This document shows, in pieces, positions 35,141 to 36,749 of a stretch of DNA of 37,915 nt. This stretch comes from a virus. Lineage: Duplodnaviria; Heunggongvirae; Uroviricota; Caudoviricetes. The notes under the pieces were generated by a model. It was not told the DNA's origin. It did not search any database and saw nothing but the letters and a program-made list of their open reading frames with translations. The stretch is from positions 1 to 37,915 of the IMG/VR virus record IMGVR_UViG_2913123054_000005; one strand, written 5' to 3'. Positions within the stretch are counted from its first letter, which is position 1; the number at the start of each line of letters is the position of its first letter. The position numbers and the translations under genes are program-made.

Positions 35141-36009
35141 CTCATGTAGTTAGTTTTTCTGGCGGGAGAACATCTGCATATCTTGTTCACCTGATGGAAG
35201 AACAAAGAAAGGCTGGCAATAACGTCTGCTACATCTTTATGGATACCGGTTGCGAACATCCGCTGACATACCGCTTTATTCGGGAGGTTGTGAAGTTCTG
35301 GGGCATACCGCTAACTGTGTTGCAGGTCGATATAAATCCAGAGCTTTGGCAGCCAAATGGTTATACGGAATGGGAACCAAAGGATATTCAGACACGAATG
35401 CCGGTGCTTAAACCGTTTATGGACATGGTAAAAAAATATGGCACGCCATACATCGGCGGCGCGTTCTGCACTGACAGATTAAAACTCACCCCCTTCACAA
35501 AATACTGCGATGACCATTTCGGACGAGGGAATTACATCACATGGCTGGGTATTCGTGCAGACGAACCTCGTAGGCTGAAACCGAAATCGGGCGTCCGGTA
35601 TCTTGCCGAGCTATCTGATTTTGATAAGTCGGATGTTATCCGGTGGTGGCATAAACAACCTTTTGATTTGCAAATCCCGGAGCACCTCGGGAACTGTGTT
35701 TTCTGCATCAAAAAGTCCACGCAAAAGCTGGGGCTTGCATGTAAAGACGAACCTGGTCTGATGCGAGTTTTTAATGAGCTGGTTACAGGTAAACACGTCC
35801 GGGATGGTCACCGAAAGACAAATAAAGACGTTATGTACCGTGGTCATCTGAGCCTTGACGGGATTGCCAGAATGTATGCCGACAGCGACTACAGAAATTT
35901 GTATCAGGCGATGGTGCAAGCCAGGCGATTCGATACCGGCTCGTGTTCAGAGTCATGTGAAATCTGGGGTGATCAATTGGAATTGAAATTCGAAGAGGTG
36001 GTGGCATGA
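35131..36009 (+). CDS. PAPS-reductase-like PP-loop ATPase (phage form)
   Basis: 292 aa; PP-loop SGGRTS near the N-terminus (SFSGGRTSAYL); overlaps the yfdR-like stop. Confidence 0.65.
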   Translation: MCITHVVSFSGGRTSAYLVHLMEEQRKAGNNVCYIFMDTGCEHPLTYRFIREVVKFWGIPLTVLQVDINPELWQPNGYTEWEPKDIQTRMPVLKPFMDMVKKYGTPYIGGAFCTDRLKLTPFTKYCDDHFGRGNYITWLGIRADEPRRLKPKSGVRYLAELSDFDKSDVIRWWHKQPFDLQIPEHLGNCVFCIKKSTQKLGLACKDEPGLMRVFNELVTGKHVRDGHRKTNKDVMYRGHLSLDGIARMYADSDYRNLYQAMVQARRFDTGSCSESCEIWGDQLELKFEEVVA

Positions 36010-36209
36010 CAATCGTAAAAACCCATACCGGCATTGTGATCACCAAAGACGGCCCGCAGGTAAAAAAACTTCACCAGACAGAGCGGATGTGGGTCGTCGG
36101 CAAAAACGAGTTTTACCACAAAGAAACCGGACGCCGCCACTTTGCAGAAAATACGCGCCGCCGACTACTGATCGACACCATCAAGCCTATCGAGGTGAAG
36201 CATGTTTAA
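36006..36209 (+). CDS. Small hypothetical protein (67 aa)
   Basis: ATGA overlap with the upstream stop (translational coupling). Confidence 0.45.
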   Translation: MTIVKTHTGIVITKDGPQVKKLHQTERMWVVGKNEFYHKETGRRHFAENTRRRLLIDTIKPIEVKHV

Positions 36210-36441
36210 ACAGAACGAAAAATCTATCGCTCAAATTGCTGAGTATATCCCGCGTGCGTGCCGGGGTATGCAGTTGCAGGAAGCCAAAGCGCGCCTGGAG
36301 AAAAAAATTGCGCTCTATATCGATGACGGCTGTGATGCTGCCGTTCTTAACGCGGCGTTCGCGCCAGCTCTTAACAGTCATACGCGGGAGTCTTTTTTTT
36401 CGCGCATCGCAGCGCAGATCCGTAAAGGAGGCAACCAGTGA
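36202..36441 (+). CDS. Small hypothetical protein (79 aa)
   Basis: 8-nt overlap with the upstream gene. Confidence 0.45.
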   Translation: MFKQNEKSIAQIAEYIPRACRGMQLQEAKARLEKKIALYIDDGCDAAVLNAAFAPALNSHTRESFFSRIAAQIRKGGNQ

Positions 36442-36749
36442 GCAATTATCTGTACTGGTCTGGCTTAGTGGCTAACATTGCGCTCATGTTGTTCGTGGCT
36501 CTTTGCATCTGGGTTTGGTTTATCTGGCCTTTTGTAGAGGCCATGAGCATAACTCGGTGCTTTATTTGCGCATCAAAGACTTCTGGATGCAAACCAACTG
36601 TAAGAGCAATTATCAGAACTTTAAAATACTGGTATCTGGATTTGCTTTTCGGCAGGGGCTGGACGCGAATTAGTAACCGCCAGTTTGAATGGGAAGGCGT
36701 CGGTAACTGGCGAATTCACAGCAGCAAAGAAACGCAGGAGGTGAAGTAA
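36438..36749 (+). CDS. Small membrane protein (103 aa, GTG start)
   Basis: GTGA overlap with the upstream stop; N-terminal TM helix (LVANIALMLFVALCIWVWFIW), Trp/Arg-rich C-terminus. Confidence 0.45.
   Translation: MSNYLYWSGLVANIALMLFVALCIWVWFIWPFVEAMSITRCFICASKTSGCKPTVRAIIRTLKYWYLDLLFGRGWTRISNRQFEWEGVGNWRIHSSKETQEVK

Follow-up and report, generated by a model that had tools for sequence, protein, structure and literature searches.

Three small early genes of a CPS-53-like prophage are exchangeable cassettes, one of which encodes a Trp-rich membrane protein of a family widespread in enterobacterial phages

Lambda's exo-xis region, the ea region of P22 and the yfdS/yfdT region of Escherichia coli K-12 occupy the same place in a leftward-type early operon, between nucleic-acid-metabolism genes and xis, and they have in common small, tightly packed genes with overlapping stops and starts, as well as a mosaic and exchangeable content. 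Regions of the exo-xis/ea type have been shown to collectively modulate lysogenisation and induction (PMC3824215, PMC8614690). Here we analysed a locus of this kind in a Caudoviricetes sequence of 37,915 nucleotides (nt), i.e., positions 1 to 37,915 of the IMG/VR record IMGVR_UViG_2913123054_000005 (this whole stretch is hereafter the window), in which three consecutive open reading frames (ORF1, ORF2 and ORF3; 36006–36749) lie between yfdR and the xis gene. The early-left position that a previous sequence-only reading had given to these ORFs was confirmed, since they belong to a leftward-type early operon that runs on the strand of a cI-like repressor gene, 3′ of this repressor, and ends in xis. 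The interval between yfdR and the exonuclease gene that follows ORF3 corresponds to exo-xis in lambda and to the ea region in P22: it is located 5′ of xis in the early operon, on the repressor's strand, it is made of small overlapping genes, and its gene content varies between otherwise near-identical phages. In related phages, Ea22-like and EaE-like genes are among the neighbours. In K-12, the positions of ORF1–3 and of the 3′-phosphoadenosine-5′-phosphosulfate (PAPS)-reductase-like gene that precedes them are filled by yfdS and yfdT, which are unrelated to them, direct comparison having shown no homology. Note that no Pfam or PDB match linked ORF1–3 to lambda Orf60a, Orf61, Orf63, Orf73, Ea22 or Ea8.5, no comparison aimed at these proteins having been made.

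The three genes, whose lengths of 67, 79 and 103 amino acids (aa) and chaining by short overlaps were borne out by the coordinates, are the following:

36006–36209, + strand: ORF1, ATG start, 67 aa, basic (isoelectric point 10.3), family phrog_1226
36202–36441, + strand: ORF2, ATG start, 79 aa, family phrog_1344; its last 6 codons (RKGGNQ-stop) lie within a shared cassette junction
36438–36749, + strand: ORF3, GTG start, 103 aa, Trp-rich single-pass membrane protein, family phrog_2531

The two enzymes named earlier as flanking genes were likewise recovered with Pfam, namely the PAPS-reductase-like (PP-loop) gene on the 5′ side and a DEDDh exonuclease gene on the 3′ side. The overlaps are 4 nt (ATGA) between the PAPS-reductase-like gene and ORF1, 8 nt between ORF1 and ORF2, 4 nt (GTGA) between ORF2 and ORF3, and 1 nt (TAATG) between ORF3 and the exonuclease gene, and Shine-Dalgarno-like sequences (GAGGTGG, GAGGTGA and AAGGAGG for ORF1, ORF2 and ORF3, respectively) are found 5–8 nt 5′ of each start. 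The three ORFs are translationally coupled in an operonic arrangement. In RefSeq, all of them are annotated as hypothetical proteins in identical prophages, and literature searches on their RefSeq accessions found nothing. Each matches a PHROG profile of unknown function over almost its entire length: phrog_1226 for ORF1 (E 1.2e-42, residues 1–67 of 67), phrog_1344 for ORF2 (E 2e-52, residues 1–79 of 79) and phrog_2531 for ORF3 (E 4.4e-27, residues 1–97 of 103). Searches of Pfam, NCBIfam and PADLOC gave zero matches for the three proteins, and sequence-profile searches of the PDB with all three families gave none below E 0.3.

Pairwise Nei-Gojobori ratios of nonsynonymous to synonymous substitution rates (dN/dS), calculated against diverged copies from fetched loci, were 0.04–0.2 for ORF1, mostly 0.12–0.46 for ORF2 (with two outliers, 0.55 and 0.75) and 0.13 for ORF3 (one comparison, with the 78%-identical copy in locus L028); all three ORFs are under purifying selection. 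A 128-aa alternative-frame ORF (36089–36475) was also considered as a gene and was rejected, as purifying selection sits in the ORF1 and ORF2 frames. Indeed, divergent ORF2 homologues from Salmonella and Klebsiella keep the reading frame of the window with amino-acid substitutions, and the alternative frame is therefore not the selected one. Frame variants were seen at homopolymer runs in ORF1 and ORF2 (36062–36068, A7; 36301–36307, A7; 36393–36400, T8), which behave as indel hot spots: a 1-nt deletion is found at these runs in each of the loci L063, L085 and L094, and several database proteins (P0128, P0227, P0229, P0233 and P0236–P0238) have their middle segment in the alternative frame and then come back in frame. 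These variants may be sequencing errors, pseudogenes or real variants.

Using 26 IMG/VR loci encoding ORF3, 22 of which are CPS-53-like, and 80 loci encoding ORF1, we found that the three ORFs are separate cassettes in a hypervariable yfdR–exonuclease interval and do not form a functional trio. In all 22 CPS-53-like loci, the exonuclease gene adjoins ORF3 and xis is also found on its 3′ side. Between yfdR and ORF3, the same loci display at least six alternative gene sets, including the PAPS-reductase-like gene with ORF1 and ORF2, a YfdS/EaE-like gene with ORF1 and ORF2, a YfdS-like gene with a gene for a 127–133-aa protein, methyltransferase-containing sets, and others. The PAPS-reductase-like gene is missing from 18 of these 22 loci, and a YfdS/EaE-like gene replaces it in other prophages. 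In all 79 loci with enough room (out of the 80 fetched), Shiga toxin (Stx) phages included, ORF2 lies 3′ of ORF1 and overlaps it by the same 8 nt. At least 15 different genes, many of them Ea22-like, are found 3′ of ORF2. Stx-converting phages also have the PAPS-reductase-like gene, ORF1 and ORF2 as a block in their exo-to-xis region, with ~95% identity and without ORF3. The sequence-only reading had treated the three ORFs as one unit, and this did not hold: ORF3 directly follows ORF2 in just 4 of the 80 ORF1–ORF2 loci, and in 15 of the 22 CPS-53-like loci the cassettes that precede ORF3 are other than ORF1–ORF2. ORF3 forms a single-gene cassette of its own. Altogether, we consider it very likely that ORF1, ORF2 and ORF3 are real genes and independent cassettes.

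The boundary between ORF2 and ORF3 suggests how such cassettes may be exchanged:

36425–36442, + strand: cassette junction AAAGGAGGCAACCAGTGA, an 18-mer comprising the end of the upstream gene, a Shine-Dalgarno sequence and the overlapping GTG with which the next gene starts

The identical 18-mer was found between unrelated gene pairs in four other loci (L012, position 1887; L013, 3941; L018, 5507; and the Stx phage L035, 5526). It links ORF2 to ORF3 in the window, ORF2 to an Ea22-like gene in the Stx phage, and unrelated genes to a methyltransferase gene in other prophages. Since the end of the upstream gene is part of the 18-mer, KGGNQ is the C-terminus of several unrelated proteins. This sequence is probably a recombination linker for the swapping of cassettes, and swapping at conserved gene boundaries that double as ribosome-binding sites explains the 4-nt overlaps. 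Two side observations concern other exchange points. The K-12 YfdT (L003, 7874–8179) and ORF3 (36720–36749) both end in QEVK although they are unrelated, and this end lies at the junction with the exonuclease gene, whose K-12 counterpart is the remnant ypdJ, i.e., at another conserved cassette boundary. In addition, the protein P0120 is a natural chimera of the N-terminal 87 residues of YfdS and the C-terminal 28 residues of ORF1, joined at a shared K-E-T-G microhomology, and illustrates that recombination within genes occurs besides recombination at boundaries.

Among the three proteins, ORF3 is a single-pass transmembrane (TM) protein of a compact family that is widespread in enterobacterial phages. 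While a word-indexed search with ORF3 found nine close clusters only, a profile search over 1.84 billion representatives gave 40 clusters of the family (at 50% identity), with lengths of 60–109 aa (88–109 aa for 37 of the 40) and mostly end-to-end matches. All 44 aligned relatives match phrog_2531, and the PHROGs matched by any of them are exclusively of unknown function. The family has no Pfam entry, and Pfam searches over the 44 relatives gave two isolated weak DUF matches only. With tblastn, relatives were detected in 634 of 50,697 phage records, and 633 of these were below 60% identity. The sampled matches were mostly from Jerseyvirus (40–45-kb Salmonella siphoviruses), Dhillonvirus (phages of E. 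coli, Shigella and Sodalis, including BASEL phages) and Ackermannviridae (155–163-kb phages, Kuttervirus and relatives); Jerseyvirus, Dhillonvirus and Kuttervirus are virulent genera. Among 5426 complete E. coli genomes, ORF3 was found in 42. A profile search of genome contigs with the ORF3 alignment found just two loci, both in Dryocola. Our findings bear on a condition set by the sequence-only reading, which had stated that a lack of conservation outside this prophage would count against its proposal: all three ORFs are conserved elsewhere.

In every context inspected, the ORF3-family gene lies within an array of small, tightly packed hypothetical genes. It is located beside NinH and ~1.5 kb 3′ of the lysin gene in Jerseyvirus, ~50 nt 5′ of two holin genes and an endolysin gene in Dhillonvirus (KarlBarth gp59 and SO-1 gp53), and after the replication genes of a lambdoid prophage in Dryocola. 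In Kuttervirus GG32 (NC_031045.1, L034), a 96-aa homologue (3989–4279, + strand) is flanked by the gene for a DexA-like DEDDh exonuclease on one side and by that for a QueC-like PP-loop protein on the other; note that the record leaves this gene unannotated and has a minus-strand ORF (4081–4275) annotated in its place. No constant partner gene of the family was found across the contexts inspected. A functional link between ORF3, the PP-loop enzyme and the DEDDh exonuclease was considered and rejected. Indeed, the GG32 arrangement, which echoes the one of the window, is probably a coincidence, because the PAPS-reductase-like gene is so often missing beside ORF3 and the Jerseyvirus and Dhillonvirus contexts are without both enzymes.

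The conserved features of ORF3 were obtained from an alignment of 44 family sequences, from which the column counts below are taken, together with an AlphaFold2 model:

36459–36533, + strand: TM helix of ORF3 (residues ~8–32), with a near-invariant Gly9 and a frequent Asn13 (Kyte-Doolittle, AlphaFold2)
36510–36557, + strand: juxtamembrane motif W.WFIWP.VEA.S..R of ORF3 (residues 25–40), the most conserved part of the family (alignments)
36648–36719, + strand: C-terminal motif FGR...W.GVG.W.VY of ORF3 (residues 71–94), a beta hairpin (alignment, AlphaFold2 strands 83–87 and 90–93)

ORF3 has one hydrophobic segment, with a Kyte-Doolittle maximum of 2.51 over 19 residues, in agreement with the N-terminal TM helix proposed from the sequence alone. 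The Trp/Arg-rich tail that had also been described was retained for its Trp content (8 Trp in 103 aa, i.e., 7.8%, with a family mean of 6.9%), the Arg enrichment being only modest (7 Arg). In the first part of the protein, the column counts are Gly9 (43/44), Asn13 (25/44), Pro31 (39/44), Ser37 (44/44) and Arg40 (38/44), and in the C-terminal part they are Trp85 (44/44), Gly87 (42/44) and Trp91 (40/44); the family also displays a Trp/aromatic belt at positions 25, 27 and 30 and a basic region between the two motifs. The AlphaFold2 model built with the family alignment (predicted local distance difference test score, pLDDT, 85.9) contains a continuous helix at residues 2–49 (the TM segment and a cytoplasmic extension), an amphipathic helix at 55–70 (hydrophobic moment 0.55) and a hairpin at 83–93, so that a small alpha/beta domain is confidently predicted. 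Over the 44 members, the N-flank of the TM helix has on average 0.2 Lys and Arg and a net charge of −0.43, and the 20-residue C-flank has 3.1 Lys and Arg and a net charge of +1.8. Given these flank charges, the positive-inside rule predicts an N-out/C-in topology, which is the probable one, with the small domain in the cytoplasm.

These features lead us to propose the following mode of action. ORF3 would be made early after induction or infection, as a single-pass inner-membrane protein with a short periplasmic N-terminus and a 70-residue basic cytoplasmic alpha/beta domain. It would dock stoichiometrically on another inner-membrane protein through its conserved Gly/Asn TM helix, its Trp-belt juxtamembrane motif and its Trp hairpin, and the docking would block a membrane step, either the DNA entry of a competing phage or a host membrane process. 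We give the explanation as a whole, from the independent cassettes to this mode of action, a probability of roughly 40%. The function itself, i.e., exclusion or inhibition of a host membrane process, is a tentative assignment of low probability, which we rank before lysis timing and counter-defence, then before inhibition of cell division, the remainder being left to other functions. Going further, it is possible, though rather speculative, that phrog_2531 could be a new class of phage-encoded single-pass inner-membrane effectors common to virulent and temperate enterobacterial phages, which would bind a conserved inner-membrane protein of Enterobacterales through the TM helix and Trp-belt and would keep phage DNA from entering, neutralise a defence bound to the membrane or change the timing of lysis; if true, phrog_2531 would have a mechanism without sequence or structural precedent.

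Several points weigh against the proposed exclusion or host-membrane role. No homology ties any of the three proteins to a function, and ORF3 and its 43 relatives did not match annotated exclusion, holin, antiholin, Kil or defence families in PHROGs, Pfam, NCBIfam and PADLOC. PDB searches likewise found no relative of ORF3 with a solved structure. Moreover, the positive-inside rule is the single line of evidence for the topology, and the start of the operon was assigned by a match to the promoter consensus and nothing else. The conserved sequence P-x-V-E-A-x-S past the hydrophobic stretch looks like a signal-peptidase site; a cleavable signal peptide is unlikely, considering that the hydrophobic core spans 25 residues, that the N-terminus is uncharged and that the predicted helix is continuous. 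The family is mostly found in virulent phages, which weakens a prophage-protective reading: since most relatives are in virulent genera, the protection of lysogens is unlikely to be the core function of the family. Note that a predominance in virulent phages is compatible with exclusion, as T4 Imm is a case of exclusion by a lytic phage. A literature search on superinfection exclusion in Jerseyvirus, Dhillonvirus and Kuttervirus found nothing on the ORF3 family.

The architecture of ORF3 also fits other roles in the inner membrane. As a single-pass protein with a charged C-terminal domain, it has the TM domain and charged C-terminus of holins, and it could act in the timing of lysis, as an accessory of the holin or in the manner of an antiholin, by binding the phage holin. 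The proximity of its homologues to lysis genes in Dhillonvirus and Jerseyvirus is in line with such a role; the matches of Foldseek to holins were all non-significant (E above 3). However, holins are encoded in lysis cassettes beside the endolysin, and ORF3 is not: the lysis cassette of the window is ~12 kb away from ORF3 and belongs to another operon, the gene is also away from the lysis genes in Kuttervirus, BUCT610, Gungnir39, the Dryocola prophage and CPS-53-like prophages, and adjacency to holins was seen in Dhillonviruses only. Because the linkage to lysis genes is inconsistent, and with holin and antiholin families unmatched, we regard a holin-type role as disfavoured and lysis timing as improbable. 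To a similar degree, we doubt that ORF3 is a counter-defence protein directed against a membrane-anchored abortive-infection or exclusion effector of the host. Single cassettes scattered over unrelated genomes are typical of anti-defence genes, and ORF3 is precisely one mobile cassette in the small-early-gene arrays of many unrelated virulent and temperate enterobacterial phages. Its TM and juxtamembrane surface, being conserved, suggests that it has a partner in the membrane; yet it has no similarity to known anti-defence proteins.

Inhibition of host cell division, which the sequence-only reading had suggested beside superinfection exclusion and in which ORF3 would hinder the divisome from the membrane in the manner of Kil, DicB or YmfM, seems still less likely. 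The early, repressor-controlled operon would suit it, and a membrane-anchored cytoplasmic domain could reach the FtsZ anchors, but no known inhibitor, be it Kil, DicB, YmfM or another, is similar to ORF3. Moreover, in a filamentation screen of uropathogenic E. coli, the hit in a CPS-53-like element was the region holding yfdN2 and not the yfdQ–R-type region (PMC6206680), the strain being one that may or may not hold ORF3. A role in replication takeover was considered on account of the K-12 locus, where multicopy yfdQRT or yfdQRS inhibits replication initiation and YfdR binds DnaA (PMC4776307). Like yfdS and yfdT, whose positions they hold 3′ of yfdQ and yfdR (99% and 98% identical to K-12, respectively), the three ORFs would add to the inhibition of DnaA-dependent initiation by YfdQ and YfdR. 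This is the least probable of the functions considered here: homology between ORF3 and YfdT is lacking, neither ORF1 nor ORF2 is related to YfdS or YfdT, and a fixed partnership with YfdQ and YfdR is disfavoured because the interval is freely exchangeable. Indeed, YfdT, the positional counterpart of ORF3 in K-12, was rejected as a homologue (BLASTP E 5.8), the final QEVK and stop being all that the two have in common.

ORF1 is predicted to form a small five-stranded all-beta domain, which is also found fused or recombined into larger PHROGs and database chimeras, and homologues of ORF2 were found in 143 clusters. The two travel as a pair among closely related temperate phages of enterobacteria, among which are Stx phages and replicons of phage-plasmid size. 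The pair was found in 580 of the 5426 complete E. coli genomes, 163 of its places being on plasmids. The plasmids concerned are of ~100 kb (e.g., NZ_AP040931.1, 107 kb, and NZ_CP074905.1, 98 kb), with Ea22-like genes adjoining the pair, and presumably are phage-plasmids, in which case the cassette moves between integrated and plasmid prophages. This frequency, and an adjacency whose 8-nt overlap is the same in all 79 loci, in many different surroundings, could mean that ORF1 and ORF2 act together as a module of two proteins, which would form a complex or resemble a toxin-antitoxin pair. We find this doubtful, as the linked loci are all at least 93% identical in ORF1, so that the linkage may reflect recent common descent alone, and as the distant ORF1 homologues of Flotzy and JK004 (52–55% identity) are followed by unrelated genes and not by ORF2. 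In addition, type II toxin-antitoxin pairs have recognisable domains and their own autoregulated promoter, whereas toxin, antitoxin and defence models of Pfam, NCBIfam and PADLOC were unmatched, and the consensus scan found no promoter-like site directly 5′ of the pair.

The remaining features of the operon in which the three cassettes are inserted are as follows:

32194–32222, + strand: promoter-like site 3′ of the cI-like repressor gene (consensus scan, TTGCCA-17-TAGATT, 9/12)
35131–36009, + strand: PAPS-reductase-like (PP-loop) gene, 292 aa, variable cassette 5′ of ORF1 (Pfam PAPS_reduct, E 4.7e-9)
36749–37321, + strand: Rv2179c-like DEDDh 3′-5′ exonuclease gene, 190 aa, constant 3′ neighbour of ORF3 in CPS-53-like prophages (Pfam, E 5.2e-75)
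37331–37618, + strand: PrtN-like excisionase gene (xis), last gene of the operon (Pfam PyocinActivator, 4e-24; phrog_1300, annotated excisionase, 3e-40)
37642–37662, bidirectional: terminator-like hairpin past xis, with an 8-bp stem, 5 GC pairs and a T-run reading the minus strand

The prophage is integrated at dusA, with dusA (1–1038) and the integrase gene (1127–2224) at the left end of the window, and its lysis cassette (two holins, a GH19 endolysin and Rz) lies on the minus strand at 22496–24222. It carries homologues of yfdN, ymfL, the cI/LexA-like repressor gene, yfdP, yfdQ and yfdR, the last two at 33651–35140, and belongs to the CPS-53/KplE1 family of E. coli K-12. On the + strand, the genes follow the order cI-like, yfdP/Q/R, further genes, exo and xis. 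In the scanned stretch, the site at 32194–32222 is the sole promoter-like site on the + strand, none being found further on until xis, and 36006–36749 contains no strong terminator-like hairpin on the + strand, the matches on this strand of the operon having stems of only 5–6 bp. This layout suggests that the three ORFs are co-transcribed in an early, repressor-controlled operon, for which the 32194–32222 site is a candidate start that may act as an analogue of pL. The PAPS-reductase-like gene also matches phrog_424 and the PADLOC model SspD (3.8e-16). In a near-identical RefSeq prophage (L001, 8788–10347), three minus-strand cargo genes, including one for a Panacea-domain protein, are found past xis and precede a dusA remnant; yfdR is annotated as frameshifted in this twin and is intact in the window.

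Altogether, the three ORFs are ordinary early accessory genes of the exchangeable kind, their families of unknown function have all been catalogued before, and they represent routine phage ‘dark matter’ in a region already known as mosaic and dispensable. The locus nonetheless illustrates the swapping of accessory cassettes at conserved gene boundaries with a second role in ribosome binding. The ORF3 family, for its part, is a tractable orphan, missing from Pfam and without a relative in the PDB, whose fold is predicted with confidence and whose membrane-proximal motif is sharply conserved. Hundreds of Salmonella and E. coli phages that are therapeutic candidates carry it, in addition to prophages, and because it is so widely carried, its target would be of practical interest for phage-phage and phage-host interactions.

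Compared with proteins of known activity, the three ORFs resemble lambda Kil, Rac KilR, Qin DicB and e14 YmfM in being small proteins of repressor-controlled early operons in E. coli prophages. Among these inhibitors, the filamentation that YmfM causes is SOS-inducible (bioRxiv 10.1101/2020.11.19.390815). No homology links ORF3 to any of the four, and its family is mainly found in virulent phages. With T7 gp17.5 and T4 RI, ORF3 shares one hydrophobic helix and a charged hydrophilic domain; these two proteins are single-TM examples of a holin and an antiholin, and the alpha/beta C-terminal domain predicted for ORF3, in which Trp and Gly residues are invariant, differs from the tails that are usual in holins. 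T4 Imm, HK97 gp15 and P22 SieA are phage superinfection-exclusion proteins of the inner membrane, which are small, expressed early or from the prophage, and without enzymatic domains. They differ from ORF3 in TM number and topology and have no sequence or profile similarity to it, but they are alike in being small inner-membrane proteins, and T4 Imm shows that virulent phages carry such proteins too.

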